Below, piece by piece: positions 22,371 to 42,444 of a stretch of 64,000 bases of DNA (within the stretch, counting starts at the first letter, position 1; each line of letters starts with the position of its first letter). A program made the position numbers and the translations under genes. The notes beneath the pieces are model-generated. The model made no database searches. It was not told the origin of the DNA and was given only the letters and a program-made list of their open reading frames with translations. The stretch spans positions 1 to 64,000 of the forward strand of contig JAPEUD010000021.1 of assembly GCA_026026165.1 (NCBI GenBank), written 5' to 3'. The DNA comes from Sarea resinae (taxonomy: Eukaryota).

Positions 22371-23631
22371 TCATTTCCCCTTCTTTTCGTCCTTGAATTG
22401 ATCCTCTGACTGGTCCTGAAGATTGAAAATGAGATCGCCCTTTAGTTTACCGACTACCGCCATGGGTTTGTTTCGATGCAAGCGTTCTGCTTCCGGGACC
22501 TCAAGCACTTCGTCAATGAGCTCTTGGGCCACGATAGTAGCAATTGAACCTGCTCCGTCCGAATTTCCAAGGATAACGGCACCAAACTTGAAGCCAGGTA
22601 GGAAGAAGTGGTAGCTTTCAAATCCAGGTACCGCGCCATCGTGCCCGACAACCATATGCCCCCGATAATAATACACCTCCAGTCCAGCGGCGTATGCTAT
22701 CGGGGACGAGTACGGTTTCAATCTTCTGGCATTAGGATTCTGAAAGGCCCGCATCCGGATAAGGCCATGGTAGACTCTTTCATTGACGGGGATTTCGCGG
22801 TTCATCAAAGCCTTGACCCATATAATGTAGTCATTCACGCTCGTGATGATCGAGCCGGCGCCTTGAGCCTCCGGACAATCTGGGCTGTGGAATCCACGGT
22901 ATGTTGAGCTAATCTTGTCCCACGTGTAATCCGTCGCAATACGGTCTCCAAAACCCTTAGCTTGAGCGCTCGCAGGCCGAAGACTGGTCGACTGCATACC
23001 CAGCGGCCGAAAAAAGCGCTCGTGCAGGAAATCAGAAAAACTTTGCTGGCTTTTCACCTCTACCAGGTGCGTCGCCACAGTGAACATCATATTGCAATAC
23101 ATATATTTGGCGCGGATAGGTGCAGCCACGGGCAGGTTTCGCAGGTTCCTCGTGACCGATCGTGCATCGTCTGGATGCGCCGCTCGCACGCTCAAATAGG
23201 AACTGTCATGGCTGCATTGTACAGTCAGTGATAATCAACAGTCGAATGAGTGGGTTTGGTTACCCAGGCATGCCGCTTCTGTGGCTCAGAACATCCTCCA
23301 CGGTAACACCCTCTGTGTATCCAACGCCAGGCATAACGAAATCATCGGGCAGCAGGCTGGACATGGTAGCAGTGTACTGCACCTCGGAGTAGTTCTCATT
23401 ATCGTCCACGAGCAATCCAACCGATGCAGCAGTCAGTGATTTCGAAGATGATGCAATGTCAAAGAGTGTATCTGCTGTACACGGTATTGGCGGTTCAAAA
23501 GATGCTTTTCCATAGCCTTGAGAAGCCACTTGGTCATTCTGTAAAATCGCAATAGCGAGACCCGGCACATGATGTTGATGCATCAGATCTTCTACATGGG
23601 CAGAGAACGCTGAAGAGTGGGAGAATTCCAT
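22371..23631 (-). CDS. Serine beta-lactamase / AmpC-like peptidase family protein, 2 exons
   Basis: HHVPGLAIAI, SxxK (IASSSKS), LSHRSGMP, YxN (YMYCN), HxG (GHDG). Intron at about 23262-23212 joins ..GMPG to HDSSYL in frame. The C-terminus may be short. Confidence 0.88.
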
Positions 23632-24828
23632 AGTTGAGCATGTAGGAACAAGTGAGAAGAATAGAAAAATCAAACGATGTAAATATGCTTCGTACTCAAC
23701 ATGTCTTGATATTTCAGAAAGTTCCTTCAGTCGAATTAATGTTAGATCATGAGTCACCCTGCATCGGCTAGGCAGACGCGTCTTTGCGCGGGCGACCGAT
23801 GGCCTTCGATGACTCTTCAGCCTTAGCTTTATTCCATGTAGCTGATCCCTCGTGCTCACGTCGGATTTCACTCGAGGATGCCTGATGCAGGTGAGCGACA
23901 CTGCTTGTATATGATTTGCTGTAAAATTCGCATCCAAACTGACACATCTGATGTTTTCACATACTAGCGAGGCGTTCGGCAGGAGCTTGATGTTATTGCT
24001 CTTCCCTCCAGTATTTTGCTCTCGCGTCATCCGACATGCTTGGTGTTAAGCATTAGGTGTCAGGACGTAGGATCCGCATATTAAAACGTGCCGATCGAGG
24101 CCTGAGGAGAGGCGAAATTGAGGATGACTGAGCGGCCGCGTCAAGACTGATCAAACGAAATCGGCACCCCGAAAAAAGGGGCGGATGAGGCTGATGATGG
24201 TGATAGGAAGAGCAGAACAGTAACAATCGCAAAAGGTCCGAGCAATACCACAAATCGATGGATGAGATAATATAGATGAGTTAGACGGAGTCCAAAGCGT
24301 GATGTGTCGAGACTAGTCCGGTAGGCTGGAATCGCGGTGCCCGTCAGAGACGTGATACAATGAAGTTCAGCGGGACAACTCGCAGCGCTCCTTGACGTCT
24401 GATTGAACCTCAGGGCCAGGAACTTACTATAAACAGGTCATCTGTCGATTAAGAAGAGTTAGATAATCAGATCACAGCCATCAATGTGGTGAGCAAGAGC
24501 AAAAGCGTAGGCGTTGAAACGAGGACAGTCCAGCGAGAAACGCAATTTGAAGAGCTCAACATCAATTCGTGCAAGACTGAGGAATATCATCCCACGTGGC
24601 TCATTTCATCCAGTCTTGGTGAATGGCGTAATTGCAGTAGCCGAAGAACGCGTCGTACTTTGAAAGTTGTCTCCTCCCTTCTGGTCCTTCTCATCGCGTC
24701 AGCTCACCATCCTCATTCCAGTTCTACTATTCCACAACTTCAATCACAGCCACCAGATCACGCCCATCAGAGAGCCATCCACGTTGTGTCAATCTCTGTC
24801 ATCACTCATACTATTTCTCCCTTTTCTT

Positions 24829-24982
24829 TGTGGGGCCCTCGTGGCATCCGCAGTTTTGTTTCTCGCCCTCATCCCCTCATCTCATCTTCTTTGTGGAGCC
24901 CTCGTGGCATCCGCAGTTTCGTTTCTCTTTCCATCACCTCACCTTCCCCTTTCTTTTGTGAGGCTCTTGAGCTTCGCAGTTG
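24829..24982 (+). repeat. Array of 3 stem-loop repeats upstream of the 25025 ORF
   Basis: TGTGGGGCCCTCGTGGCATCCGCAGTTTTG (24829), TGTGGAGCCCTCGTGGCATCCGCAGTTTCG (24892), TGTGAGGCTCTTGAGCTTCGCAGTTG (24957); spacing 63-65 nt with pyrimidine-rich spacers. Confidence 0.9.
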
Positions 24983-25024
24983 TGGACTTTTCACTATCCT
25001 CCCACCCGATCTTTACAGCACAAG

Positions 25025-25588
25025 ATGCCATCCCAGGGTGATACGCCAGAGTCGTACGCGGCACGACTAAGGGCGATGCTCCAATTCCGTGAAGCAACAC
25101 TGGCACTGCCGGGATCCACGGCAGATCTTCCGCTACCAATGCGAATTACAGCACTTGAGGCGGATGTTGCAATGCTACAAGCAATTGTTCTTGCTTTGCA
25201 GGGACAGGTTCGTGTGCTAACCGATGCGGCGCAAGAAGCAGCTCCCCGCATGCAACATTCGGGAGAAGTCCGTGCTCAACGGCCATTATCACCGTCACCA
25301 CCACCACCGCCGTACCGAGCTGATCCTCCGTCGGCCCCAACGACAGTGCCTGCTCCGATAGTGACGGCTTCTGCCCCAAGTCAATCAGCACTACCGCAGC
25401 CACCGCCACCACCAACCCGAGCAAACGCCTCACCCACGCTCGCGACAATACGTGCTCCGCCAATAACAGCCTCCGCTACTGGCCCTAATATGTCGCCGAG
25501 GTCGAATGAAAATGGAGCGAGGAGGCCTGGGGGCAGCGTTGGGCGCAGCGGGAGCACACTGCCAGAGAGACCTCGTTGGAGATTTTAA
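25025..25588 (+). CDS. Hypothetical protein: short coiled coil followed by a Pro-rich tail
   Basis: ATG at 25025 in good context (CAAGATG); heptad-like RITALEADVAMLQAIVLALQGQVRVL; lies about 40 nt after the hairpin array. Confidence 0.55.
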   Translation: MPSQGDTPESYAARLRAMLQFREATLALPGSTADLPLPMRITALEADVAMLQAIVLALQGQVRVLTDAAQEAAPRMQHSGEVRAQRPLSPSPPPPPYRADPPSAPTTVPAPIVTASAPSQSALPQPPPPPTRANASPTLATIRAPPITASATGPNMSPRSNENGARRPGGSVGRSGSTLPERPRWRF

Positions 25589-26031
25589 GCCGAAGGCCTT
25601 CTTGCCTCCAGACCAGGTATGAGTATCCGAGCCTATAGATTTACCTAATCAGGCTAATTTGCAGACGCTTGCGATGACGTCTAAGATGATGGCGGCTACA
25701 TCCAAAAGACCCCAAGCCTGATCATATTGAATCCAACGTCCAGGCGCGCCAGCAACAGCCAGCCCCAATGGCCAAGGAGACGGACTCAGCCCCTCCGATT
25801 GCTGCATTTCGAATACAAGGCACTCAGACGTGTTTTCCAGTGGCCATCTCACGAAAGCAGGATTTCAAAACTCTGAGGATCTCCACGTTGTGTGACAGAG
25901 CAAAGCTGTTCAGCAGCTGCAGTCCTGGCTGTTCAGGCATCCCAAGGAGAACTAGTCAAGAGCTGAGGCCTGCTTGATCAACTAAGATGCTTTCCTCGCC
26001 GGCACTGTACCGAGGCTGCAGATAACGGTCA

Positions 26032-26490
26032 TCAGTATATTCGATGCCTTGGAGAACAACAACCATTCCGTCGATCGAAGATAACAAGAAATATGGGTGA
26101 TGGGTCTATTTTCGTCGAGTTGAACGGATGGTTGGCGACATGTATTTGGCGCTTTTTGAGTCCGCCCAGGCCAAGGAGGAAGGTGGAGAAGTCGAGAGCG
26201 GAAAGAGCGAGGCTAAGCTGCTCAACAGCAGCGAAGTACCGAAGCACCTCTAGAAGTCAGTATGAATATGCCTACAGGATGTCTTACCTGCACCAGGCCA
26301 CGGTCCAACTTGTCGCACCCATTACCATCCCTCCTTTGGAGAACATTCCAAGATCCTTTCCAGTAGCTCCGTAAGCCACCCACCTTCCCGGAATTCTGTA
26401 GCGGTAGGCCAGTCTCTCGGATGAAGCGTCGTCATATTCAGCAATATTCAGCAAGAAGGCTCGCTTTCTTGTTGCTCGAAGTCATGTAGC
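26032..26490 (-). pseudogene. Spliced orphan gene remnant with a stop codon and a 10-bp duplication
   Basis: Reads ..LNMTTLHPRDWPTATEFREGGWLTELLERILECSPKEGW*WVRQVGPWPGA, then an intron (GTAAGA..CTGAC..TAG, about 26288-26251), then EVLRYFAAVEQL..; boundaries approximate. Confidence 0.45.
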
Positions 26491-27442
26491 CATGTCGGAT
26501 TAGGCAAGCTGGATGTATGAGCTTGGCTTTACCTACATCACGATCGTTGAGCCCCCCGAATCGTGTAGCATGATACGCGTTTGATTGCCTCATTCTAAGC
26601 TGCGTCGAGGCTCTGTATCCTAGCTGTTTAGTAGGGTGGTTGGATTAATAACCACAAGACTGAGAGGGTTGAAGAATAGAAGAAATGGATCGTTGTGAAT
26701 AGACGTAATATAAGCATAGCTGACAGTAAAAATTAAAGCACCATTGAGGATCCCTCCAGCCATAACCCAATTTCAAATGTATATACGTAGCATTAAGGCC
26801 GCAATGTAGGTCAATGTTTCAGACTCGCGCAACAGTCGAGAGGAGGTCAACGCTTTCGATCAGGCGCGTTGGTATAATGACAGCGAAGATGATCGCTATG
26901 AGATCGAGATCATGTGGATACTTACTAAATGATCACCTCTCAATGATCATCTACTTTGCCAGGTGTTTTGATCTGGTAGAGCGAATATCAGCAGCGCCAA
27001 ATTGAGGATCGACAATGCCAAATCAAAGAGCTCGAAGGCCATATGGAGGCGCCTGGGAGATAAAATACGCGCAAGATATTGAAATGCCGTTGATCGATCT
27101 CTCCCTTAGCAGCCAGGACTGTCGTTGGCTGACGGACAATCCTTTCCTTTCATAGCTGGCTGTCTTCGTCCATGTAGAATTGTATCACCCTAGAGCGCCT
27201 GTGATTGTAAGATACTACAAAGCTCTGAGCTTTTATTTGTCTGCAGTTTCTACAATGTAACCACAGGTTTACAATATATTTGCAATCACAACAATTAAAG
27301 GTGTGGTATAGTATAGCAATAAGAACTAGAGAGACCTACAATATAATATCGATAGAGAAAAAGAAAAACAACAGGCTTTAGAAGATCGTGAAATGATTCA
27401 AACAATGGCCGAGGACGTGGCATCTCTGATAGCCGAGCCGCA

Positions 27443-30058
27443 TCATTGTCGAAGCAGGCGAATTTGTTCAGCATTTGCTGCAGAGGCTGCCTCAACCATC
27501 CTGAACAAAGCATCCAGGAGGTCATCTAGACGAAGTACTTGGAGGTACTTTCTCAGTGCTGAGCCTTTTTCGACAACTACGGACTCGCCACTTCCCCATC
27601 GAACAAACACGCCAGTGGCATCGCCATCTATCGTGAAGTCGTTGGCGAAGTAGCTGACGACCCCCTCCTTCTCATCAAAAACGCCGACCGAGGTGTCGTC
27701 CCTGACCAGCGTGACATATCGGTTTTCTTCCGGAACATCGACCAAGCGGAAAAGCCAGTGATTGGTCGTCCCTCCTTGGACTTCACTTTGGCCGTGCAAG
27801 TTCCAGATAATCGAGGGGAGAGACAACTTGAGCGATTCTGATTGGGCGTGGTCGGTCGCATACCCCAGTATTTGATATGCCCCCATCCCTAAAAGGTCGT
27901 CGGGAGTCTCGTCGATTGGCAGACTCAGATCTGGGCACATCAGATGCAATCGGGCCATTAGGATTAATGCCATAGCCCGATCCAATCCGTGGCGAGCGGG
28001 GCTGACCAAAACCGGCTTCAGGAGCGCGCGGAGCATGACCACGGTCCAGGATTCGATGGCCTCCTTGTCCAGGATCTGCTGAATCCAAAGGAGCCTCTCC
28101 GTGGTCGCCATCTGGTTTCTTCTCAGAAGAGCAAAGAGAAAGTGCACTGTTGGCTGGGGGGTCGCTGTTGCCGTTGGCGTGCCGGGGTATTTGTCTGCGA
28201 ACCGAACCAGTTCATGACCGCGTGTAACGGCCATGTCCTCCGTCCACTCCGTCTCTTCAATGCCGAGGTGACGAATGACTTGAGCAATCTCAGCCATTGA
28301 CAGGGACTTCCCCAAGCATTGCGAGTCCGCCAGCATCATCATAACCGACTCTCCGGTTTGTCTCTCTTGAAGTCGTCGGCTGAGATCTGCAGCTTCGGCA
28401 GTGGTTCTGTCCCGAACGGTCTGCATCTCCAGCCTGAGCGCCGAGATCGTCTTATCCTTGTCTGCCAGGCTTTCTTGCAGATTCTCAAGCGTTGATGGGT
28501 CGGCCGCATTGCTAGCCTGGAGAAAAAGCAACTCCATCTTGAGGGCTGAGATTATTATGTCTTTGTCTGCCAGAACGCCTTGCATATCCTTCAGCGTCGC
28601 ATCGTTGGCCGCGTTCTCGTCCCTGGATGCGATCAAGGTCTCACAGAGCAGTCGGACATGTTCATCCCGTTCCTGAAGAGTTGAGACGTTAGCCGCATTG
28701 TTGTCCCGCAATGTTTGCAGCTCCACGTTGAAGGCCGAGGATGCCTCCTCCTTGGCTGCCAGAGTGCTTTGCAGTTCCTCGATTGTTGTAGCCTTGTCAG
28801 AAGCGGCGTTCTGGAGATCTTCAATCTTACGCTGGAGCGCCTCGAAGGAATCTTTCAGCCTTTGAGTCTCCACAGCTTTGGAATTGTCTGCAGCTTGGCG
28901 CTGATTATTTGACTGCTCAATGGAATTTTCCAAAGCCTGGACCGTCCGCTCCAGCTCTGTCATTATCTGGCCACGCTTCTCGATCGTCAGCCGCAGTCGC
29001 TCGGCCGCATCCTCCAATTTGTGAATGGTTGCATCCTTTCCGACTATCGTGTCCTCCAATCTGCGTTTTGATATTTGCAGTTCGTCGAGGGTGGTTTGCT
29101 CGGCGGTGCGAGCGACATTGTAGTTGTCTCGGAAGCGCCTCATGTCTTCCAGGGACTCTTGGTACTTCTGCTCGACATCGTTTTTGGACCGTCGAGCAGC
29201 CTCTGCATCACCAGCCAATTCCGTGACCGTCGTCTGCAGATCGCTGATCTGGTCATCCCTTTCGGCTACATTCGCCTCTGCGCTGGCCAGATCGGCTTGG
29301 GCAATCTCGAGATCTGCTTCTAGATTCGCTTGTATTGTCATGCCATCCGCAAGCTCTTTTTGAAATTCACGCTCTTGGTGCCGAATAGCTGCTGCAGTCT
29401 GATATGCAGCCTCATCCGTTGCTGCCTTGATTGCTTGACATAGCTGGGCAATGGTCCATTCATCTCCGGGACCGATGATGTGAGTCAGCGCCTCAGAAAC
29501 CTCCGGATCAGTCGGTCTCCATAGCGTTCCTTCGGTCACTAGTGCTTGCTCTGGTGCCGATCCCGCGTCGAATTGTTCGAAGGCTCTGACCTTTCCCGGA
29601 TCCAGGAGTGATTCTGGTACGTGATATACCTCCGTGAGAATACGGGCGGCCCAAGCCACTGCATATTGGCGCCTAGGCAAGGTAATATCATCGTCTATTC
29701 CGGGCATCTCTTCTACTAGCAATCTGTCTAGCCCTTTCTCCGCGTCCGCCAGTTTTTCCTCTTCGATCATCGTCACATCCACATAACCATCTTTAGCCTT
29801 GAGCTCCTTTATCCTTTCGACCATTGCGGCATGAATGTGGCGAACTCGGGCTAGATCTCTGCTTAATGCTGGCTCTGAATAATCTGCGTCGGATGTATTA
29901 GACTTTCCCAACTCCTCATCTCGGCCGAGGAATCTGTGTAGTTGCTCTAACGCTTCCGTTTGAAGGTCAACTGAGGCTAAAGACCTGCCGATTCTAGGCA
30001 ACCGAATTACTCTGCGCCCGGCTCCGGCACGAGGGTTTGGTGGGACTCGAGAAGCCAT
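27443..30058 (-). CDS. Intronless orphan protein of about 871 aa with a long central coiled coil
   Basis: Uninterrupted ORF; likely ATG at 30058 (MASRVPPNP), 57 nt downstream of a leader hairpin; E/L/A/Q-rich heptads across the middle; globular-looking ends. Confidence 0.8.
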   Translation of the reverse strand: MASRVPPNPRAGAGRRVIRLPRIGRSLASVDLQTEALEQLHRFLGRDEELGKSNTSDADYSEPALSRDLARVRHIHAAMVERIKELKAKDGYVDVTMIEEEKLADAEKGLDRLLVEEMPGIDDDITLPRRQYAVAWAARILTEVYHVPESLLDPGKVRAFEQFDAGSAPEQALVTEGTLWRPTDPEVSEALTHIIGPGDEWTIAQLCQAIKAATDEAAYQTAAAIRHQEREFQKELADGMTIQANLEADLEIAQADLASAEANVAERDDQISDLQTTVTELAGDAEAARRSKNDVEQKYQESLEDMRRFRDNYNVARTAEQTTLDELQISKRRLEDTIVGKDATIHKLEDAAERLRLTIEKRGQIMTELERTVQALENSIEQSNNQRQAADNSKAVETQRLKDSFEALQRKIEDLQNAASDKATTIEELQSTLAAKEEASSAFNVELQTLRDNNAANVSTLQERDEHVRLLCETLIASRDENAANDATLKDMQGVLADKDIIISALKMELLFLQASNAADPSTLENLQESLADKDKTISALRLEMQTVRDRTTAEAADLSRRLQERQTGESVMMMLADSQCLGKSLSMAEIAQVIRHLGIEETEWTEDMAVTRGHELVRFADKYPGTPTATATPQPTVHFLFALLRRNQMATTERLLWIQQILDKEAIESWTVVMLRALLKPVLVSPARHGLDRAMALILMARLHLMCPDLSLPIDETPDDLLGMGAYQILGYATDHAQSESLKLSLPSIIWNLHGQSEVQGGTTNHWLFRLVDVPEENRYVTLVRDDTSVGVFDEKEGVVSYFANDFTIDGDATGVFVRWGSGESVVVEKGSALRKYLQVLRLDDLLDALFRMVEAASAANAEQIRLLRQ

Positions 30059-30114
30059 TGTGTGCGGAGTGAGTCGTGATAGGATCCAAAGAACGAGAGA
30101 TGGTATAGGAACGA

Positions 30115-30142
30115 CGAAACTGCGAAGCCCAAAGGCCTCACA
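30115..30142 (-). repeat. Single stem-loop repeat upstream of the coiled-coil gene
   Basis: Minus strand TGTGAGGCC-TTTG-GGCTTCGCA-GTTTCG; 9-bp stem with G-U pairs. Confidence 0.9.
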
Positions 30143-30597
30143 AGTAACGACGAGAAATTGATGGTCTGAGCTGTAACGTGACATCCAGCGCAGAGGAGAG
30201 CAGTTCTTCTGATACGCCAGTAGCTTATGGATCGGTGGAAAGTCGCAGCGGTATGTATTCGGGAAGATGGATGGAGTCAAGTAAAGCGTCGCGGAGGATA
30301 GATGGAGGATTGATGAAGTCAGGTAAAGTGTCGCAGGATGTATGGATTCGGATGCACTGCCGCCGCGAAGCGAGAGGTGAATCAAAGAAGAGTAATGGCA
30401 CAGACTTTGCTTGATGGTGTGTGCCTTTGCTAATTATTGAATACGAGTTGTGCCATGAGCACCATCTTCTCTCACCATCTTCTCTCAACACCACCACTCA
30501 ACACCATCATACCATCATCAGCATACCCCCACCCACGGTGATTACGTCTACTTCGTGTCAGTCTTTGGTGATATATTGCTCCTCTTCCCATCGTCCT

Positions 30598-30625
30598 TGT
30601 GGGGCCTTTGGGCTTCGCAGTTTCG
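30598..30625 (+). repeat. Single stem-loop repeat upstream of the GIY-YIG-like gene
   Basis: TGTGGGGCC-TTTG-GGCTTCGCA-GTTTCG, 58 nt before ATG 30683; one difference from the inverted copy at 30115-30142. Confidence 0.9.
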
Positions 30626-30682
30626 ATTCCCTCAATCATTATTCATTACCATCTCATCCTCAATATCACACACCCCACTACA

Positions 30683-32287
30683 ATGGATTCGCCGCAAATA
30701 GGATCCTCCCCTCCCGAACGGTCTCCTCGGTCTCCTCAACTTCCCTCGACTCAAAGTCTCGTATCACCTCACCAAGAAGCTCCTCGTGGACAACCTTCTG
30801 AGATGAGACTCACTTCGCCTCGCTTCTCAAGTGTTTCCCTCGTTGAAGAGACACCTCCTCCACCTGTAATAGTCGACTATGTGGCAGATTTCCCGGATTA
30901 TCCATTTGACCCTTTGCAGAAGGAATTCATGGAACAGCTCGAGCTTAGTGGGGATGGCGATTTGCTTAAAAGCATCAAGAAGCAAGGTAATGGATGTACC
31001 TTTCCAGCAGATGACAACAATGACTGACTGGTTTCGATTTTCAAGACATGATCGATCCTTTTAGCAGCCAAACAAACATCTTTCTCCGGGCCGAAAGATA
31101 TGCTAAGGTCTATGGATGTCAGGTCCTCTTTTCCCTGCCGAAGGAAGTCAAGACTGGGTTAATCAAGGGGGATCTTTTGACGCGACAGCCGCCGATCCAG
31201 TTGACAGGCCAGGCTCGACTGAGGGATGTGGAGCTCGCCAAGAAGGCGTGGCCTGTGATATACGGACATTTTCACGTACATCGCAAGACAAAGCAGGCTC
31301 CAACGGCCAACCAGTACTTCAGGGTCATCGGTGATATCGAAAATTACATTCAGCATTTCATGGGGGTTCGGGTTACCAACCATGCTCACGATCTGAATGC
31401 GCACAGGATCGACGCAGTCATCCAGACCGGAAAACCCTGTGGTTTTCGAGATGGAGACTCATTGACGGGCAAGCGGCGATATTGTCAGAGTGATGCATAC
31501 CGCGCACACATTGAGACATGGCTGGCAGGATTACGTTGCCGGCTTAGACTTATTCCCATAGCGCATCACGACAAGCCAATCCCATGGCCTTTGTGCGGAG
31601 TTGGGTACACTTCTGACCCGGCCACCACAGAACAGCAACATCGCGAGCATACGAGTTCTCAGCAACTCATGTACCTGGTCCGCTCGGCATTTGATCGCCG
31701 CTGGCCAGACAACTTCGAGATGGAGTTCATGGTCCTGTACGAATGCTGGAATTCCGAGCAAGCTCCAATTGCTGAGCATGTCATATCACGACTTTGCTTC
31801 TCATACGTCCCACATGGCGGATTCAATGTGACATTAGGTGGGGTAGGCAACATATCAGCTCAGGATGAGCCTGAGACTATCTATGAGCCGATTTGGGAAG
31901 ACGTCCTCGAACGTGGTCACTTTACAGAGAATCTTGAGTTCGCGAACGATTGCGTTGAGAGGAAATTAGACTTGGTCAGACAGATCAAGCAAATCAAGGC
32001 GGAAGTGGCCGAATTCGAGGTGCTCAAAGTTGAGCATCTGGCCAAGAGGAAAAGGTTAGCAAGGCTCCAACACGAAAATGCGGTCCGAGGTAAGCTTGCA
32101 AACCATCTATGTGATGATAGGACTAATTGGAAAAGGTGCTGAAATAGAGAGACTCTCTATCCCCTACCTTAAACGTGTTCTGGCAGACATCAAAAAAGCG
32201 AATGAGATACTAGCGGAGTCGGAAGTTTTGGCAGCTTTTGCGGCAGATGTCAATGAATTGGCCGAGCTTGGCAGGAGACCGCAGTAG
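30683..32287 (+). CDS. Hypothetical protein of about 500 aa with a GIY-YIG-like nuclease domain and C-terminal coiled coil, 3 exons
   Basis: Introns 30987-31045 and 32090-32135 (GT..CTRAY..AG) join three ORFs in frame. Motifs VGYTSDPATTEQQH, AxxAExxI and GGFNVTLGG resemble the GIY-YIG pattern (YxG..R..QH..E..GxN). The gene model is better supported than the domain call. Confidence 0.65.
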
Positions 32288-32969
32288 ATTGGCGGAAGTT
32301 CCCTTACGCGTATTCTTCCAGAGTGTCAGAAGTTCCAGCTAGCTTTAAATATCATGCGTTGTCCTGTCGCGTTCACAAAGTTGAATCCATCATGATCTAC
32401 GTCCACGTCAGATTAAGCTCGCGCCGCTACATCGGCCTCGGCTAGCTGCATTGACCGAAATTCCGTGTGGCAAGATCTGTGCGCATCGCTTGGATAAGCG
32501 ATGATAGAGGGTTTACGGCGTCCCTAATCAGATAACGATGATCATGTTCTCTCTTCCCGTGAGCAAATCGCATTCCACATCATCTGTCGTCTGACGCCAT
32601 CATGTCTTTTGACCTTACCGGTGTCTTGGCGTACCTAATATTGCTCGCGCCAATTATTGTGGATGATATTGGTGAGCACCAAAATCTGCTTCTCAATTCC
32701 ATTGCCATGTAAATACAAGAAAAATCGCATCAATGTAAGGTACAGTAAATAGGCAAGCATGTTCCTAGTTGCGCTCAAAAGGCTACCATAACCTGGCTCG
32801 TCCGGTCCATACCCAGTTGCCTACTATAAAGCGCAGCGCTCCTCGCATTCGAAGAGAAAGTGAGTGAGGACTTGACCGCCAGGGAATAAACCATTTCAAA
32901 TTCAATACCAGAAAATACACTAGATCCTAAGCCCCCTCAGCCTGGACACCAAATTTCAAGCTGTTCTGC

Positions 32970-34560
32970 TCATGTCGCTGTGATATTGAAGCGTACATGT
33001 ACCTTAGTCTGTCGTTGGATCTCATCTGGGGTGGGACTCTTAGTTCGGACGATGTGCTCCTTGATAAAATACACACACTGGCGCCCGGTTACGGCAAAGG
33101 CATGGCACTTGTTGGTCATATTCGGCCAGTAAAAGTTGCCTCCGTGCGTGATTGCCTGCACCCACCAGCATTTGGTTTGGTGGTTCTGATTGACCACGAG
33201 ACTGGTGTTTCGCGCGGCAAGGCCTTTCCTTTTGATGGTGTTCTTGATCTTATTGTGAAGGATCGAGGCGTCCAGGAGCTCGTACCCGTCGTCGACCTTT
33301 CCTACGTTGATGTCGAGGAAATTGTTTGGCCGAGCGTTGATCACGAATGCAGCAGGGCGAGGATCGCGCTCTTGCTCTGGGGACAGAGCAGGCGAAACTC
33401 GAGACCTTGCTGGGATTCTTTGCGTAGCTGTCCCTGTGGCCGCCAAGCCCGATCTCCTTCCTCGCAAGGAAGTTCTGGTCCTGCTCGCGATCGTTGGTTC
33501 GAGAAAGCCCCGAGCGCCTCCACGGCTGCGATCGCTGGTTGGAGCCACATTCTCACCAGTCCTGGAGCGTTCCCCTTCCTCGGGCCTCGAGCCGTTGTCT
33601 GCCGTCGTAGAAGCGCTCTTTGCCGACAGCGAACGATACCTACCCGAGCTGTCCCGAGGTTTGACCTCTTTGCCCTTGCTTCGGGCTCGGCGTCCGTCCG
33701 CAAATGTCAGAATAGTTTTGAGCATAGTGACCCACCTTCGTCTGAGCTGACATTGTACAGATCTACTTCTGGCGAATCGGCCTTGTCATGTTGGGGGAGA
33801 ACATCAGGCGTCGCGTCCATCGCTGCCGGAAGCTCACTTACAGCTGTGCTCGCACGGTGGCGGTTTTTCTCCGGGCTTATACTCGGAACGTGACCACGAG
33901 CACCTGCCGTTGGCGAGACTACTCTTTGACCCTCCGTGGCAGCCTGGCCGGCATCGTGAAGAGAAAGCACCTTTTGCCATCTGGCGTTCCTTTCGTCGGC
34001 TCTCTTTTCTCCCCTTTCTTCTTCCAACCTGCCCGCTTCCAAGAGCCGCTCGATGTTGACGTCAAATTGGACGGCAAATTGGCTGACCAGTGATCTAGGG
34101 TCGTAAGAGTTTACGAGGCGTTGAAAAATCAAGCCCTCCTCGTCTTCCCTGAGGGCCTTGCAGGTCTGCGTAAATAATTGATCACGCTCGGTATGCCAGA
34201 GGGAATCAATGTATAGGAGGACAAGCTGCTTGAACACCTCCACGACCTTCTTAACCAATGCCTCTCGATCTTTACCGGCCAGATTACCCAATTCAGTGTA
34301 GATACTAGTCTAGATCTTGTCAAGTGCTGTCACGATATCTGCCGGAAGGTTCTCGTTGAGATATTGAAAGAGCGTGTCCGAGAGGATCTTCTTGATCATC
34401 GTTTCGTGCACTTCCTTTAGCAGGTCGAGTTCTTTGCTCCTCTTCTCGACCTCAATCTTCCAACCATTGCTAGTACGTGCTAGAACTTCCGCATGGCTTA
34501 CCTTGTCATCAGCTGCGGCTTTCGTGAGTTGAGCGATTGCCCGCTCATGCTGAGTTTGGA
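32970..34560 (-). pseudogene. Orphan gene (helical/coiled N-terminus, low-complexity middle, Cys-containing C-terminus) with a RIP-type stop
   Basis: ..QHERAIAQLTKAAADDK, intron GTAAGC at about 34500, IEVEKRSKELDLL..ALDKI*TSIYTELGNLAGK (TAG at about 34310, CAG>TAG type). A probable intron at about 33735-33686 links it to the 32970..33725 frame. The 5' end is lost in AT-rich sequence. Confidence 0.55.
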
Positions 34561-34842
34561 AACCCTACAGCCAAGAATAAGGATACCTTCTATTGGCCCT
34601 GCAATATACCCTAGTAAAAATTAATCTAAAATATTAATTGTCTGATAAGGACAGTTAGGATACACTTCCTCTAGCTCTTGTAGCAGAGGATTGCGTATTG
34701 TAGTTAGAGCCGGCCTTTTATGTCTGCATGAATAAGTTATTAGAGGCTGTCATTAGCGCTTGAGGCCAATCAGTAGATGTATGTCGGGCTAATGTAGCAG
34801 GATGCTTAGCCTAGATGCAGGAATTCACAGGCATGGCTTGTT

Positions 34843-35160
34843 CTAATGCTTATTTCGTATGGCCTCTTTCAGCGGCACGAAGGATGCGAATTCTAAATCG
34901 GCTGGTAGCGACGTCAGCCCGGCGAAGTCGAAAGCAGCAGTCGCCGGGGTCTTCCTTGTCGTGGAATTCCAGTCATTGGTAACCCTCTTGCCCATAGTTG
35001 GCTCATAGCCCGCGGCAATGAAGATCATTTGAGCCATCTAAGTGAGTACAATTTTCTGGCGGGAAAGATAGAGGGAATTCAGGGTTCCATCTGTATAGAC
35101 CAAGCTGAATACAATGAACTTAGCTTCTGAGCCTTCGAAATTGTCGCTGGTCTCAACCTG
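34843..35160 (-). pseudogene. C-terminal fragment of an SF1 helicase paralog (copy C)
   Basis: QVETSDNFEGSEAKFIVFSLV (motif V) and FIAAGYEPTMGKRVTN align with QVETREKFQGSEAQV and FITVSHEPTMSKRVPN of copy B. Confidence 0.7.
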
Positions 35161-35825
35161 TGAACGAGCCATTCACCCAGTATCGCAGTGAATGTGGAGG
35201 TATCGATGACGTGCTAAGTCCAGAATAGTCGGAGACCAGTTTGATGGCGTTCGCATAGATGCAGTAAACCCTCGTCTTCAGGATGGGAAGATGCCTAGAC
35301 CTTCGCGCAAGCCAGATCCACAATGCTTTTTGCTTTTAGGCCTTGCAATTCCTCACGCGATTGTCTGCGTAGTCTATCCGCAGAAAGTATAGGGAAATCG
35401 TTCGACTGTATAACAACTTTAAGTATAGTGTCTACCGCCTAGTTCTCTACTGCCTGCAAGTTAGTACAGTCGTAGTCAGATAACACTTGCCTAATAGCTT
35501 TGTGTCGCCCGCCCTTGATTTTATTTAAGGTCACCCCGAAATGTATGTACGCTTCTAACAACTTAGCTTTTATTAATTCTCTTATCTAAGGATTAGGGCC
35601 TGAAATAGTCCTGCTATCTGGTCGAAAAATCGTCTGCTATTATATCTCCTGTTAGTCACGTCTTTCGTATAACAGGAGAGCAACTTACTTTGCCAGAAAG
35701 ATTTGACATAATATGGCGAAGCAATCAACTGTAGAGTGAAGTGAAGGGCTTGATTCTCTTATGACACTATCTCCTCGCGCCCTTATCATCGAAGCACGCA
35801 ATGGTCAGCACAGAGTCCGGATCAC

Positions 35826-38800
35826 CTAGGCCCCAGCAATCCTGAGGGTCCCTTGCACCCTCACGGCGTTTGCCCCGAGAAGCTTCAGGACATCGGCCAT
35901 AGGGCAGGGTTTGTTGGGTACCCTCTTGCTCATGGTCGGCTCGTGGCTGACGGTGATGAACACTTCCCGTGCCCTTGATGTGGCGACATTGATGCGGCGG
36001 GGGTGGTGGAGGAAACCTAGGGTGTCATCGGCACGGACGAAGCTGAATACAGGACTTGAGCTTCGGAGCCTTGGAACTTTTCTCTGGTCTCAACCTGCGA
36101 CGTCCAGCCATGCTCGGCCCGTATCGTCCTCAACAGGTCGACCTGATCCCGGTACGGGGTCAGGTCGACCACCTCGGCCGGCGCAATGCCCATCTTCATC
36201 AGTCCCTGCACTATAGTTGACACTACTAGTGCTTCTCGTCGAATGGAGACTATAGTGTTGATGGCATGCTGACCCTCGTGCACGTTGAAGACGTACTTGG
36301 TCGAGTTGAGGCTGAAGGCCCGGCCGGAGTCGTCGAAGAAGTTGACCGTGAGAGCGATCTCGCAGAACCGAGCGCTGAAGGGCCGGTCGACGCTCGTTGG
36401 GAAGGGGATGATGCGACCATCGTAGAACCGGACGCTGGTATGCGTGGCCAGCTCCTTATGCGCCTGGTACTGGATCCTTACCAGGGCGTAAGGCCAGCCC
36501 GAGTCGATCATCCGCTCTATCGGGGTCACATCCCATGCGCGGCTGCCCTCACCGATGATCATGACCGGACCATTCTGCTTGTAGTCGCCCGTGAAGTATG
36601 CGGCCCGGAGAGAAGGCTGCGACAGGATTGGCAGCAGACTGTCTGGGTCCTTTGCCGAAACGACCTCGTCAACGATGAGATAGTCCGCCTTGAACTTCCT
36701 CAGGAGCTTCAGGCCCAAGTTCGTACAGGTGCCGAACAAGACCTGAGTGCCCTCCAGCACCATTTCGTCGAGGGTGACCGACTGCCCTATCTGTTATCTC
36801 TATCAAAGTTTAAGTCTCTCTTTCTGATTATTTTCTACGCCCTGTCCCTGCAGTGTAGCCTCGCACTAGTTTCATAAGATTATTCGCTGTTATTAATGTT
36901 CCCAACCAGAATTAGTATTAGGAAAGATGTATTGCACAACAACCACAGAATAATTGACTTTTATAATCTTCTTGTCCTTTCCCTTTTGTAGAGTAGTAGT
37001 GTCTAACTCTTCTTAGTTTATTTTTTAGTTCTTAGAGTATTATATTAGAAGTAGTTACAACAGGCATTTTAAATGAAACTACTTACATCCTAGGCTTTTA
37101 GAAGAAAGTCTACGCTCTTTAGCTTCTCTCTTTCCTCTCTTATAGAGATTTTGTTAATAATATTATAGACATGTATAACAGCCTCTAGCTTATAGCTGTA
37201 TCTCTGTAGAAATTGTATTATAGCCTAGTTACGTTCACTAAGCAAGAGTGATTTTTCCGAAACGCTTTTATTAAACATACCTTTTGTAGAGCATAACCCT
37301 TGTAGGAGTCTGCTATTTTGGAAGGAAGTTAGGTAGTGCAGTGGTCTAAGAGTTAAGTGCCCGCTCGCTCCCGTCTTGGGTCGAGACAAGTCCGTCAGTC
37401 TCTCGATCCCGGACAGATATGGAGCCCATTGGACGGGGCTGAGATAAGCGATCCTCAGCCTCAGCGCATCCAGATCGGACGGGGTGCTCGACATGTTTAC
37501 CTGAAGCCCACGAGCCACACGTCGCCGTATGATCTGGCTCTAATAGTGGACGCGAAACGCCTTGAATGGCACATTGTACCGCCTCAAGCAGGTGGCACAC
37601 TTATGCTTGGCAATTTCTATGGCTGCAACATACCTATTGCTAAATTTAATATCACATCTTTTGTAGCTTCCTCCTTATTAGCTTCTTGATTCAATCATCT
37701 ATAGGTAGGACTCTAGTATAAGCTATAGTCAGACTTGTCTTCTGTATTTCAAGATATCTTGCGGTCGAGTCTAATCAGGATTAGCTAGGCAAAGGACACT
37801 ATTTACGTTAACGATTCCATGACCTTTACTTAAGTCGTCTGTTGCAAAATTATAAGGCTAGGGTAGATCCTGTAGGCAGCTTCTTTTTCTGCCTTTGCTA
37901 GTCGTCGACAACTTTCTCGCCGCGTCGGCGTGTCGATCGGCAGTAGGGTCGGCGAAGTCGACGGTGACATGGATCCCCTCTTGCACAAGGCCGTCGTATT
38001 TCTGCACGTCGACTCTATCTTCGACGATGCCGACGACTGATCCAGAGAAGGGCAACTCCGACTCGACCCGAACGCCAAGAACATCTTCGCCATCGTCGGC
38101 ATCGGGCTCAGGGTTCGTGAGCCGGATTCGCTGGCCGGAACTGATATCCCAGGCCCCCGTAGCTGCTTGCACCGGTTCGATCTGCGCCACGATGAACCCA
38201 CGATACGCGTGGTAGCGGACGGTGCAGCACTCACGCTCTTGACCGTTCAGCCTCTCTTTTGCGGCCTTTGACTCTGCAGAGATCGCGTCGAGATTCATCT
38301 TAATGTACTCTCGGAGGTGTCGTTAGCTCATGAACTTTTTATCCGACACCTCTAGGAGAGGGTCCGCGGCGATGTACTTGTCTGCGAGTCGAATACGCAA
38401 GCCGTCATACTCCCGAATTTTCTTGCATGCGGGAATGTGTTCGGGTCGGAGCAAGCGAAGGCAATCTGGTCGGCCTGGTGGGAAACCTGGTCCGTATTGC
38501 GGGATCTTGCCGCCGTGTACGCATTGGGCTTGACGCTGAACGTGAACTCGGTCATGTTGTCAACGGTCCGGTGCTCGTACTCGATCTTCTCCCACTTGAA
38601 CACGACGCCGTATTTGACCGAGCTGGATTCGCCCTTTGGACTCACGCGCGATTGCCATATCGAGAGCTCTGGGTGAAGGGTCATCCTAGCATTGAAACCT
38701 GTTGGCGTTTCTTCAGGCAACTCCCCATCTCTTTTCCGAAGCATGAACCATAGTCGATCTTCGTCGCGGGCGTCGTTCGCCTCAGTAGAAAAGAGTACCC

Positions 38801-38846
38801 AAATGGGCAAAGCCTTCAACTTCTGGAGTTTCAGTGGTAGCACCAT
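35826..38846 (-). pseudogene. Upf1/DNA2/Nam7-like superfamily 1 helicase gene (copy B), fragmented
   Basis: Motifs LIVDE (II), GDYKQ (III), IQYQAH and FYDG (IV), LTPYRDQ, KFQGSE (V) and, after a frameshift near 36050, RRINVATSRAR (VI). N-terminus MVLPLKLQKLKALPI at 38846. Walker A was not found; AT-rich tracts interrupt the gene at about 36790-37340 and 37600-37890. Confidence 0.8.
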
Positions 38847-38875
38847 GACGAAAGCGTTGGAGGGTCGGGAGAATG

Positions 38876-39159
38876 GAAATTGCGAGCGTTACTCAGAGAC
38901 ATGGCCACAAACAGCTAACCAGGGAGGAGAAACACTGACATGAAACTGCGAGAGTCACGAGGACTTCATAGACAAAGGAACAAGAGAAAAAGAGGAACAC
39001 ACACAACACTTCGGGAGTACGATCACACGAAACTGCGAAAGCCGAAAAGTTTTACAATCAAGAGAGAGAAAAAGAAGGTAGACACAGTGAAGTACGCTGA
39101 TCTCAGAGATGAACAACAGAGAAGAGATCGAAACTGCGGAAGCCGAAAGACCCTACACA
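38876..39159 (-). repeat. Array of 4 partly degenerate stem-loop repeats upstream of helicase copy B
   Basis: Plus-strand units GAAA(C/T)TGCG...CACA/CATA/TACA at 38876-38909, 38941-38970, 39028-39056 and 39129-39159. Confidence 0.8.
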
Positions 39160-39540
39160 GACGACGACGAAGTAAGATAGGTCAAGGGAGAGACAAGCCA
39201 GATATCTGCGCGCCCGGGGTCCCATGACGCATTCTACACGAAAACAGCACATATCATCGCACCTCTAGCGTGACCGCACCCACGAGATGTTGCTTGTCAT
39301 TACGCTCCTGTGTTCCGACACCACATTTTCAACTGCCCGACGTATTCTTTCCCACCTAGCTACTAAAGGCATGATATGTAGCAGCTTGTCAATTTGTCTG
39401 GCCTTCAGCTGTCAATGCCGGTACTGATCCAGTGTCGCTCGGCACTCCTGCAAGCTTAGTTGATGTGGGTCGAGGGCGATCTTTAGTTAGACCGTTAGTG
39501 AATGACTTTTCGTTCCCTATAATGCTTGCTTCTGCTACAA

Positions 39541-39843
39541 TCAGTATAGAAAACCAAATTGGTAGCTGGCAAAGCTCAAGGTCGGTTTGACTCTCGCGGC
39601 TTTTGCTTTGAGCAGCTGCATGACGTCGGCCATAGGGCAGGCCTTGTTAGGAACCCTCTTGTTCATGGTTGCGCGTGAATAGTAAGCTATCGGCGCGGAA
39701 AATGTTGAACACGATACTTCCCATCTTGTTTCAAGCGTGTACCATGTCCGATCGTCGTTGGCGACATCGTCCGTACCCGTAGAGAAGACGATTGTGATGG
39801 GCAAGTTCTTCAGCTTCTGAAAATTCAGTGGTGGGACCGACAT
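39541..39843 (-). CDS. 100-aa internally deleted mini paralog of the helicase gene (copy A)
   Basis: N-terminus PLNFQKLKNLPITIVFST..DDRTW matches copy B PLKLQKLKALPIWVLFST..EDRLW; C-terminus TMNKRVPNKACPMADVMQLL matches copy B TMSKRVPNKPCPMADVLKLL. Confidence 0.7.
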   Translation of the reverse strand: MSVPPLNFQKLKNLPITIVFSTGTDDVANDDRTWYTLETRWEVSCSTFSAPIAYYSRATMNKRVPNKACPMADVMQLLKAKAARVKPTLSFASYQFGFLY

Positions 39844-39866
39844 CGCGAAGGTATTGAAAGGGGTAT

Positions 39867-40198
39867 CGAATTGCTGCTGCGAGCGTCACCAAGAGCCTCA
39901 CAAAGCAATAATCGAGGATATAAACACTTACACGAAACTGCGAAGCCCAAAGGCCCCACAGACGAACGGGGTTTAATAAACGCACACGAAACTGCAAAGC
40001 TTAAAGACCCCACAAACAAACTGGAGGGTGATGACACACACGAAACTGCGAAGCCTAAAGGCCTCACAGGTAACGAGAAACTGATGGTCTAGAAACTTGC
40101 GTAGAGTAAATGAGAACTGCGAAAGTCACTAGAACCTCACACCAAACAATTGTGAAGGTGAAATACACGAAACTGCGAAAGTGACTGATGACCTCACA
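39867..40198 (-). repeat. Array of 6 stem-loop repeats with unique spacers upstream of helicase copy A
   Basis: Plus-strand CGAAACTGC...CC(T/C)CACA units at 39867 (degenerate), 39933, 39987, 40041, 40113 and 40168; period 54-55 nt for most units. Confidence 0.92.
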
Positions 40199-42444
40199 AA
40201 CAAACGAACCGGGAAGGTGAGGAAGAGAGTTTCTTGGAAGAGAGTTGATAGTGGAACGGTAAGAAAATCAGGTTTCTGTGACGAAGACTCGCGTACTTAT
40301 AGAGAGGCGACGTAATCACTCTCAAGAAGTAGGTGTGAAATTAGTGTGATTTTTAGGAGTGTTCTCTCTGCGAAACTCTTGCTCTGCTACTATACTCTAT
40401 CTTTTCGAAGAGTATAGTTTAGAAAAGAGCTTTCTCTATTGTTAAATTTGAATCTCTTGAAATTAGAACAGTAGTCGTATAAGTTTGTTAGGGTACTCTG
40501 CAGCAGTAAGATTATAACAAATATAGAAGTAATAAGCTCTAGGCTTGTTAAGACTATTTACTCAAGAATGGTAGTAAAGCAATTGTAGTGTATTTATGCT
40601 TCGTTCTTATAGAGGATTTCTTAGTCCTGCTTGAAATTGGTCGCTCGAGAAGGCAGCAAAGAGATTTGGTCGTGTCGTAAGACACGGCGACAGGCCGTAG
40701 ATAGTAGATAGTATATCGATCGTAATGTCGGAATCTTATATTTATACTGTGACCTGGCTCTATTACAGGCACTGTATTGCCAGCACTAAATCGTTCGCGA
40801 ATTCAGCACAGTCTGCAGAGCCAGCTAGGTAGTCTGTAGAATAGTGTGTTAGTATATTTCTATCGTGAGAGACCGGCCCCCTGGTTATAGCTGATGTCCG
40901 ACAGAAAGTGAACAGGTAAGTGAATGCTTATAGATAAAGTTTCTACTCGGCAGAGGTGAATGCCTGTGGGCGTAGAACTGCATTCACCGTGAAAGCCGAG
41001 TGGAAAAAAGATAAGGATGACATAGAGACAGCCGTTACAGCTGTTGCGAATCAATGAGCTCTTTCTGGCGCTTGAGCGACTTCTTCTCGAATATAAGCAA
41101 GACTCTAGCTTTAGCCTCTCGAGTCACCAAATCGTGCCAGAAAAGCACTGCAGAGAGGACGCGAGGGATCGAGCATCTTGCTAGATTCTCATAAGTCGTA
41201 GATAGCATCCTTCAACTTCTCAATCCAGGGCTCCCAAAACCCTCGAGGGCCTAGTGTCGCTGCTTAAGGTCAGCAGCTATGCATGCGAGAGAATGGCTGT
41301 ACTAACTGCATTATTCTACTCGAAGCATGCTCTAGCTTATTTGATGTGATCGTCGATGACAAGGGCTTACCAGTGGTTTATCAAGGAATGGTTGACAAGA
41401 GGTGGCTAACTGAGGAGGACGTTCCTTGCTTCGTTGATTCAAAGAGTCTGAATATAATTCATAAGAGGTTGCGTGAAAAAGAAAGAGAAAGCAGATTAAG
41501 CAGATTAAGCAGATATTTATATCTGCTGGTGTTCGGTTAGGCAACAGGCAATTCATTGTAGAACTAGTGGGGGAATCAACTTTCAGAAAGGGAAGTGACG
41601 GTGACTCGACTGGAAAAAGAAGCTTCACTGAGAAATAGCGTGTCAGAAGGGAGTGTGTATGATGTAGCATCTTAAAAGAGAACTTGTGTAATGCGTGGAA
41701 GGTAGATGAATGCCCCGACTTAGAGGATACAATGGCCATGTCAGCATTTCTGGCTCTGGACCGTGGCATGTTGCTCGGGTGAAGTAGCTCGTGGAGTTAT
41801 ATCGGGTTATATCCCAGCGAATTGTAATGCTCAAGGAATGTATTGCACCACTGGAACACATCGCGATACGTCAGCATTTGATATCTTCATCCAGCCAAGC
41901 TCTCCAAATTAGTCAGCAGTTGAGTTCAGGACGTGCCAGTATTACAACACGATCCCTTTCCGCCGCGTTTGCACTCGACAATCCGAGCACCGCTTCACTC
42001 ATAGGATCTACGAGCTTTGCGAGCATCCCCGACCTAAGGGGACCTTTCGTCATTGCAAAAAAGAACTAACCCAACGCAAAGATAATGTCGGTATCGGATC
42101 GATGACGAAGGGAGGGGCTTGTGAGGCATGTCTACACAAAGCAAACAAGCCAGCAAAGGAGCGAAAGTCGGAGATCTGTGTATGGCCGCTCTTTCAGCTT
42201 ATTAGAAGGCATTCTGATCATTCAAGACTGATGTGGAGGGCTCGTTGTTGGACATGCTGGCGGGGGTCTAGTCCCTCTGGTCAGTCTTCAGCGTATCGGA
42301 TACTCCATTGTCGTCGCTAGTCTTCTCATGGCATCCTTCAATAGCTATACCTTCGAATACAAGGATATTTCTAGCGAGTTACGTTAGTCTTCATCCCATT
42401 GACTGTAATATCTATCTGCTTACTTCTCCATGGCTAAATCAGAT

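Follow-up and report, generated by a model that had tools for sequence, protein, structure and literature searches.

A strand-specific hairpin module upstream of genes in a decaying block with a predicted GIY-YIG-fold protein and a Upf1-like helicase pseudogene in Sarea resinae

In a 64,000-nt stretch of DNA (positions 1 to 64,000 of contig JAPEUD010000021.1, forward strand; hereafter the window) from a metagenome-assembled genome (MAG) of Sarea resinae, an ascomycete of the class Sareomycetes, we found a block of genes of ~15 kb in which a repeated hairpin module stands upstream of open reading frames (ORFs). The block spans ~24.8-40.2 kb (24824-40203) and includes a gene for a protein with a predicted GIY-YIG fold, a gene for a long coiled-coil protein, a Upf1-like superfamily 1 (SF1) helicase pseudogene and several orphan ORFs. 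An earlier reading of this DNA from its letters alone (the sequence-only reading) had described a compact block free of housekeeping and metabolic genes, and our scans bear this out, since no Pfam domain of either kind was found in the block. These scans covered 15 ORFs, the three minus-strand frames of 34900-35828 and 36794-37902, and all six frames of 25589-27444 and 40206-42445; small stretches of the block lie outside the all-frame scans. Tentatively, and at a little less than an even chance, we read the block as a decaying nucleic-acid 'conflict' cluster that is resident, lineage-restricted and co-regulated, with a strand-specific 5' hairpin module as its tag. It does not appear to be mobile at present.

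The hairpin is confined to the block. Its core, CGCAGTTTCG, has eight exact matches in the 64 kb, all of them at 24912-40177, against 0.17 expected. A covariance model with a 10-bp stem, built from six hairpin copies and run with filters off across the whole window, gave 12 matches at E<=0.43, every one within 24824-40203 and none in the remaining 49 kb. Six of these are the seeds, five more have E-values of 4e-06 to 0.012, and one stands at 0.43; the best match beyond the 12 (E=1.1) is unconvincing. All 12 copies are in sense with the next downstream ORF, and the last stem lies ~45-100 nt before its ATG. Copy number differs from gene to gene: the ORF at 25025 and the helicase have three modules each, the coiled-coil and GIY-YIG genes one each, and a helicase mini-copy four to six. 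The earlier proposal that a shared hairpin ties these genes together is thus upheld by model matches that are all inside the block and all in sense.

Each module consists of a CT-rich tract, a 28-nt hairpin (CUGUGGGGCC-UUUG-GGCUUCGCAG) and then UUUCGUGU. Across the 12 copies, 97.3% of 113 alignment cells hold standard pairs, compared with 32-72% when the 3' partner column is slid. Changes occur on both sides at three of the 10 stem pairs, with four cells that are true double changes. At three of the 10 stem positions the pair seen most often is U·G or G·U (in 12, 9 and 8 of the 12 copies), and because several stem pairs are G·U the hairpin folds on the sense strand only. Consistent with this, the minimum free energy of the RNA summed over 14 copies was -132.9 kcal/mol for the sense strand and -63.1 kcal/mol for the antisense. 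Modules before different genes are 93-100% identical across 28-30 nt, whereas the helicase paralog DNA that adjoins them is only 71-77% identical, and we therefore conclude that the module is under constraint or concerted evolution. Kept pairing, strand specificity and pair-preserving changes, the marks by which a structured cis-regulatory RNA is recognised, were all found. The module matched no Rfam family, and a 25-nt hairpin pattern had no matches in either the JGI metagenome contigs or the IMG/VR viral contigs.

The modules are arranged as two singles and three arrays. The left array (24824-24992, plus strand) holds three modules with a period of 63 nt, at 24824-24866, 24887-24929 and 24952-24992 (E-values of 8e-05, 1.5e-05 and 9e-11); a CT-rich tract precedes each hairpin, and the final stem ends ~45 nt ahead of the ATG at 25025. 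Two single modules lie between the divergent coiled-coil and GIY-YIG genes, one at 30107-30147 (minus strand; 54.6 bits) ~60 nt upstream of the coiled-coil ATG (30058), and one at 30593-30633 (plus strand; 53.4 bits) ~60 nt upstream of the GIY-YIG ATG (30683), the latter following a CT-rich tract and a TATATT box. The middle array (38933-39164, minus strand) lies upstream of the helicase ATG at 38846, with modules at 38933-38975, 39020-39061 and 39121-39164. The right array (39864-40203, minus strand) has model matches at 39925-39965, 39979-40019, 40033-40073 and 40160-40203 together with two degenerate units (39864-39905 and 40104-40146), and a period of 54 nt. Similarity between modules can span the whole 54-nt unit, as between 30114-30167 and 40040-40090 (88.9%).

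The gene for the GIY-YIG-fold protein (P0001; 30683-32287, plus strand; exons 30683-30985, 31045-32091 and ~32141-32287) encodes a protein of 499 amino acids that is 100% identical to the database entry 'MAG: hypothetical protein M1819_002402 [Sarea resinae]'. The protein has a disordered N-terminus, a GIY-YIG domain at residues ~170-365 and a single long C-terminal helix (393-495), and its domain carries a helical insert of ~100 amino acids between the first strand and the 'YIG' strand. There were no Pfam matches in P0001, and a word-indexed search returned only P0001 itself. An exhaustive phmmer search found 350 representative proteins at E<=1e-3, 56 of them at E<=1e-10, with about 20-36% identity. 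Atlas neighbours were Ascomycota 'hypothetical protein' clusters (0.92-0.94), and atlas leads to GIY-YIG, Eco29kI and T5orf172 were weak (0.77). In P0001 and 55 aligned relatives, no GIY-YIG-type Pfam model (PF01541, PF10544, PF09517) matched at E<=0.01, and the 55 relatives share no recurrent partner domain; some members of the wider set of relatives (P0003-P0151) are 700-1900 amino acids long, with unrelated N-terminal extensions. Using a family alignment (A4), we found no relative encoded by any of 65 pattern matches in JGI metagenome contigs or 47 in IMG/VR viral contigs. The portions available to us of the literature on fungal GIY-YIG proteins, Starships and Pezizomycotina helicases contained nothing on this family.

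The fold assignment comes from structure prediction. AlphaFold2, run with an alignment, gave a mean predicted local distance difference test score (pLDDT) of 84.9 for the whole protein and 91.9 for residues 160-395. When the domain model was compared with 48,161 PDB chains by VIA-align, ranks 1-4 were all GIY-YIG nucleases: the I-TevI catalytic domain (Z 7.9; root-mean-square deviation 2.0 Å; 87/92 residues), PD-T4-3 (Z 4.9), T4 EndoII (Z 4.5) and the UvrC N-terminal domain (Z 4.2). I-TevI was the only chain to reach Z>=5, and HIGLE, Eco29kI and Slx1 came further down. Foldseek, which the sequence-only reading had put forward as a check, returned nothing significant at E<=1e-3 for the full-length or the domain model, and I-TevI ranked 13 (E 1.7) with the latter. 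With full-length P0001, 49 of 50 VIA-align rows matched the C-terminal helix, and the family profile matched only coiled coils among PDB sequences. On the predicted model P0001 has the GIY-YIG fold, as the sequence-only reading had supposed in calling it GIY-YIG-like. This assignment provides a first biochemical hypothesis for these 'hypothetical proteins', a sizeable Ascomycota family that Pfam does not match.

Conservation across the family falls at vIY174, Y202, D224, RRY247, G288-Y289, R296, H300, H303, E345, Y355 and GGFN362. Among the 55 aligned proteins, Y174, G288, Y/W/F289 and R296 are each kept in 54 and E345 in all 55, and position 362 is N in 32 (P0001 included) and S in 15. From the order and spacing of the Tyr, Gly-Tyr, Arg, His, Glu and Asn positions, rather than from a residue-level superposition on I-TevI, we infer that they fit the GIY-YIG catalytic set; the spacings resemble those of the Tyr, Arg, His and Glu set in I-TevI. 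P0001 alone among the 55 has Thr at position 296, where the other 54 have Arg, and it differs from the rest at E286, N307, N311 and E314 as well. Because of these substitutions, the Sarea protein may be catalytically impaired.

The helicase gene is a pseudogene. It occupies 35826-38846 on the minus strand, with an N-terminal region at 38846-37858 and a core at 36793-36017. Pfam scans of the core (36017-36793) gave AAA_11 at 1.5e-06, over its C-terminal 70 positions only, and AAA_12 at 6.4e-14, which confirms the SF1 helicase of the sequence-only reading. The core still shows a motif II 'DE' and a 'TGDYKQ' stretch resembling motif III; its closest solved relative is UPF1 (5e-10), its closest PADLOC model is Mokosh MkoA (7.5e-13), and a word-based search with it among longer proteins gave no relatives. 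The final piece of AAA_12 (36089-35826) lies in another frame, with a frameshift near 36020-36090. For the N-terminal ~320 amino acids (38846-37858), which include a frame change and a stop, there was no family match, and the stretch between them and the core (37857-36794) is AT-rich and has stops in all three frames. Pfam found nothing in the three minus frames of 36794-37902 even with stops read as X, and the Walker A/RecA1 half is not recognisable. It is these stops and frameshifts, together with the stretch without Pfam matches at 36794-37857, that lead us to call the gene a pseudogene.

Two truncated copies of the helicase lie in tandem with it on the same strand. One is a C-terminal fragment at 34900-35200 (minus strand), a third copy of this region that carries stops, is 69-74% identical to 35914-36126 and matches AAA_12 at 0.014. 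The other is an internally deleted mini-copy at 39541-39843 (minus strand), a 100-aa ORF in which N- and C-terminal pieces are joined, with ~38 N-terminal amino acids 50% identical to 38843-38730 and ~34 C-terminal amino acids 68% identical to 35936-35835. Between the fragment and the main pseudogene (35186-35830) there was no residual helicase similarity (score 13.0 versus a shuffle mean of 13.0).

Patchy damage of the kind left by repeat-induced point mutation (RIP) had been reported for the block, and we found this to be true in part. Sliding indices at the usual thresholds gave a positive composite RIP index in the block at 36.5-38.0 and 39.5-41.0 kb only, and the left half (24.5-33 kb) had no signal (-0.6 to -1.6). 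Similar patches lie beyond the block, at 1-1000 nt and at 3.5-4.5, 46.5-47.5, 50-51 and 54.5-56 kb; the strongest RIP-like composition of the window is at 54500-56000 (GC 0.39, TpA/ApT 1.34, substrate index 0.72). RIP is expected to leave a strong excess of C:G->T:A transitions, a high TpA/ApT and a low (CpA+TpG)/(ApC+GpT). Transitions and transversions numbered 27:27, 11:14 and 36:29 in the pairs of helicase paralogs, and 17:13 among 30 listed differences between 36851-37308 and another contig; the GC content at third codon positions of the helicase core is 0.77. The damage to the helicase is therefore real, but its spectrum is not that of RIP, and since the paralog differences lack a transition bias, the argument that RIP implies further copies is weak.

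The remaining genes of the block include the long coiled coil and the orphans that had been noted before. The coiled-coil protein (P0002; 27443-30058, minus strand; 871 amino acids, with a database entry of the same length) is an orphan in which ~300 amino acids of internally repetitive coiled coil stand between an N-terminal region and a C-terminal one of ~230 amino acids. A word search with its C-terminal 312 residues returned only itself, its best atlas score (0.81) is within the range of shuffled proteins, neither of two pattern matches in IMG/VR viral contigs encodes a relative, and no P-loop was seen on reading its sequence. It had sub-threshold matches to Pfam Cast (4.8e-05) and to PADLOC LmuB (0.006), the latter below a useful threshold and covering the coiled coil only. 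Gene 1 (25025-25588, plus strand) is a Pro-rich ORF of 187 amino acids without a Pfam or PADLOC match. Gene 4 (32970-34564, minus strand) falls into pieces at 34564-34313, 34309-33736 and, after a probable intron, 33684-32973; it has an in-frame TAG at 34310-34312, no clear start, and no Pfam or PADLOC match. GC content at third codon positions (GC3) is 0.57 in the coiled-coil and GIY-YIG genes, and most flanking genes lie at 0.55-0.60 (range 0.51-0.75).

We call the cluster decaying because its helicase has become a pseudogene accompanied by two truncated copies, gene 4 is interrupted in frame, and the nuclease has lost its conserved Arg. A side-by-side nuclease, 5'-3' RNA/DNA helicase and long coiled coil suggest, by domain type alone, a conflict system, either for defence or as an old selfish module. 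Under the mechanism that we propose, the block would comprise five transcription units, namely the Pro-rich ORF, the coiled-coil gene, the GIY-YIG gene, the Upf1-like helicase and the helicase mini-copy, each led by one to ~6 modules. The hairpin would act as RNA at or near the 5' ends of the transcripts, and could thereby give a single trans-acting factor a shared point of access to the mRNAs, linking their stability or translation; alternatively, it may be an orientation-dependent promoter element.

We also examined copy number, using contigs of the sole public run that matches this DNA (probably the source sample) aligned to 22500-42400 at >=80% likeness; no RNA run is among the public runs that match. 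Summed contig depth over the block was flat (~345-405), and extra contigs appeared at two short places only, ~32732-32810 and 36844-37310. The AT-rich stretch at 36844-37310 is matched by one other contig (depth 449; an estimated ~85-90% identical), which is either a second helicase remnant elsewhere or a repeat inserted in the gene. The run also contains a second genome at a depth of ~10-12 (~3% of the main one) that is 80-90% similar. Its contigs partly cover the beta-lactamase flank and, within the block, the hairpin intergenic region, the coiled-coil gene, the GIY-YIG gene, gene 4 (including its 3' exon) and the helicase, so that this genome could serve for comparisons. One contig of 2,990 nt joins 31364 to 32970, with 1,238 letters between them instead of the 1,605 of the window, so the order of the GIY-YIG gene and gene 4 is the same in the minor genome. 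Weak evidence suggests that the left hairpin array there has one unit fewer, with a stem that still pairs (GGAGCC/GGCUCU). An apparent joint of 23794 to 29495 on opposite strands was not trusted (depth 10.8; 45 letters on the short side).

Several observations weigh against a co-regulated conflict cluster. An element acting as DNA would fit the positions of the hairpins equally well, and the role as RNA is one that we infer. Pairs were counted on an alignment that had been fitted to the structure model, the copies compared are paralogous repeats, and the four double-change cells amount to weak covariation. Gene 4 lacks the hairpin module, and gene 1, whose coding status is uncertain because its GC3 (0.436) is below that of its neighbours and atypical, may be non-coding. 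What would link the nuclease, helicase and coiled coil in function is their adjacency and the shared module; no fused forms appeared among the 55 family members, and comparison of the other block proteins with the extensions of 149 family members gave no similarity. The helicase core has a GC3 of 0.77, far above its neighbours, which could reflect a separate, possibly horizontal, history. The two edge arrays are mutually inverted, as a terminal-repeat reading would likewise predict. Finally, the single-copy state of the block is judged from Logan contigs of one run at the likeness given above, and such contigs show presence, not absence.

Two of the alternatives we consider unlikely. The block might be an immobilised remnant, left by a large mobile element or an integrated virus of unknown class, with the inverted edge arrays (24824-24992, plus; 39864-40203, minus) as former termini or gene promoters and the nuclease and helicase as decayed genes for mobility or replication. 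Such an origin would account for a content of only orphans and nucleic-acid enzymes, for a mini-copy that retains both ends of the helicase gene as non-autonomous derivatives do, for two AT-rich RIP-like patches, one at 36.5-38 kb and one (39.5-41 kb) at the right edge, for the unusual helicase GC3, for the other contig that matches 36844-37310, and for a GIY-YIG family that is large and fast-evolving. Yet the scanned parts contain no transposase, reverse transcriptase, tyrosine recombinase, Rep, polymerase or capsid domain, which agrees with the absence of DDE transposase, reverse transcriptase, tyrosine recombinase, Rep and protein-primed polymerase already noted in the sequence-only reading; no DUF3435 captain was found in the 15 ORFs or the six-frame stretches, no HUH Rep domain was detected in the scans made, and the helicase is Upf1-like rather than of the Pif1 type of Helitrons. 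A search for terminal repeats at the block yielded only the hairpin arrays, and since the module also stands before internal genes at a similar distance from the ATG, a promoter or leader fits better than termini. In the contigs of the one run the block is single-copy at the likeness used, apart from the two short stretches, the GC3 of its intact genes is host-like, the paralog differences are not RIP-like, and viral contigs gave neither relatives of the GIY-YIG family or the coiled-coil protein nor matches to the hairpin. The suggestion that this is a large mobile element or an endogenized virus thus found no support. The module could instead be a small promoter-carrying or miniature inverted-repeat transposable element (MITE)-like cassette of ~54-63 nt that spread locally before unrelated genes, by duplication or gene conversion, in which case the genes would form no functional system. 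The contrast between near-identical modules and diverged neighbouring DNA, similarity that runs through a whole 54-nt unit, tandem arrays of variable copy number and the unit seemingly missing from the left array of the minor genome would all follow. However, all 12 copies lie inside 15 kb, with none in the other 49 kb of the window, they are always in sense at a similar ATG distance, and the strand-specific G·U pairing has been kept, which argues for selection on an expression function and not for neutral spread.

It is very unlikely, in our judgement, that the block is instead an active defence or drive module in which the GIY-YIG protein, the coiled-coil protein and the small ORF still work and the helicase copies are dispensable remnants. 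The ORFs of 871 and 499 amino acids are intact and of host-like codon composition, they share a divergent promoter region with mirrored hairpins, and a kinase gene and a SesA-domain gene of the type that adjoins fungal NOD-like receptors (NLRs) are nearby; against this stand the missing Arg296 of P0001 and its four other departures from the family. The evidence on balance points to a resident, decaying cluster, and cautions that orphans, a helicase and a nuclease found together do not make a mobile element. A more speculative extension of the co-regulated cluster, and a very improbable one, is that the hairpin is an RNA 'address label' of a fungal nucleic-acid conflict system: every mRNA of the nuclease, helicase and coiled-coil module would begin with this stem-loop, and one factor, possibly the helicase or the nuclease-like protein of the module itself, would license or silence them all at once. 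If so, the Ascomycota-wide GIY-YIG family, with its helical insert and coiled-coil tail, would be an effector class, and the cluster would parallel, in a eukaryote, the helicase-nuclease defence islands of bacteria, organised as a post-transcriptional regulon. To our knowledge, such regulon logic has not been described for fungal gene clusters.

Comparison with known systems brings out what is unusual here. Fungal gene clusters with a shared promoter motif are known, for example those with cluster-specific transcription-factor sites in secondary metabolism, and like them the block has adjacent genes, including a divergent pair, that bear a common positioned upstream element. Where such clusters would be expected to have a short palindromic DNA site, the block has a 10-bp hairpin that is strand-specific, contains G·U pairs and often occurs in tandem; the block also has no transcription-factor gene (by Pfam, in the scanned ORFs), and its genes are non-metabolic. 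A conserved RNA-type stem-loop, repeated in tandem and standing before each unit, is unusual even where shared DNA motifs are familiar, and it offers a testable handle on co-regulation. P0001 has its core fold in common with the GIY-YIG superfamily (I-TevI, EndoII, UvrC, PD-T4-3, Eco29kI and Slx1), but its family has no curated-model match, carries the insert and a C-terminal helix of ~100 residues each, and keeps the catalytic Arg that Thr replaces in the Sarea protein; unlike intron and intein homing genes, the gene is nuclear and has spliceosomal-type introns. The helicase shares AAA_11 and AAA_12 with Upf1-like SF1B helicases (UPF1/NAM7, SMUBP2, SEN1 and DNA2, and MkoA), and differs from them in its unrecognisable Walker A, its unmatched N-terminus and its stops and frameshifts. 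In size (~15 kb), cargo-like orphans and an accessory site by a biosynthetic cluster the block resembles Starships, Helitrons and large DNA transposons, but it lacks DUF3435, Rep/Pif1 and DDE domains in the scans made and shows no multi-copy signal in the contigs of the one run. The block recalls bacterial helicase-nuclease defence pairs (Mokosh, Hachiman, Gabija and Lamassu) in that a helicase, a nuclease and a long coiled coil adjoin one another; unlike these, it is eukaryotic and has introns, its coiled-coil protein has no ATPase head, and its helicase is dead.

The flanks of the block were annotated from Pfam matches in long ORFs. On the left it adjoins a beta-lactamase-fold gene (22371-24045, minus strand), itself next to a non-ribosomal peptide synthetase (NRPS) gene, and the order leading up to these is a LysM protein, a flavodoxin-like reductase and two major facilitator superfamily (MFS) transporters. 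On the right, a protein kinase gene (42445-43305, minus strand) is followed by a SesA-domain gene (45514-46236), an RNA recognition motif protein, a 6-phosphogluconate dehydrogenase and a glycoside hydrolase family 15 (GH15) enzyme. Lying between a biosynthetic cluster and kinase/NLR-type genes, the block appears to be part of an accessory stretch. The region directly to its left is likely a secondary-metabolite cluster: the NRPS (9659-22254, plus strand) has three modules of adenylation-thiolation-condensation (A-T-C) repeats, with paralogous modules at ~10-12.5, 15.6-17.7 and 18.8-20.9 kb, and its neighbours are the two MFS transporters and the flavodoxin-like reductase (2852-8963) together with the beta-lactamase-fold gene. 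A seeming in-frame stop in the NRPS (14951-14953) falls within a canonical GT...AG intron. To the right is a self/non-self-type neighbourhood: the SesA domain is of a kind that fungal NLRs carry N-terminally, the ORFs that come after the SesA-domain ORF lack Pfam matches (45514-47990, plus strand), and the kinase gene is close by.

Two repeats complete the picture. Scans of 23-42 kb for tRNA genes and, at E<=0.1, for Rfam families were both negative. At 32732-32810, where the 3' ends of the GIY-YIG gene and gene 4 converge, the two genes are separated by a short dispersed repeat of ~75 nt. It has short inverted ends (TAGGCAA / TTGCCTA), 5-7 further contigs of the run match it, and it corresponds to no tRNA and no Rfam family. 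The window itself starts with a perfect 54-nt tandem repeat (1-70 versus 55-124, 100% identical), inside an ORF that encodes a repeat protein with a weak, sub-threshold Pfam match to a poly(ADP-ribose) polymerase (PARP)-like domain, and the LysM-domain ORF lies shortly after it, at 846-1544.

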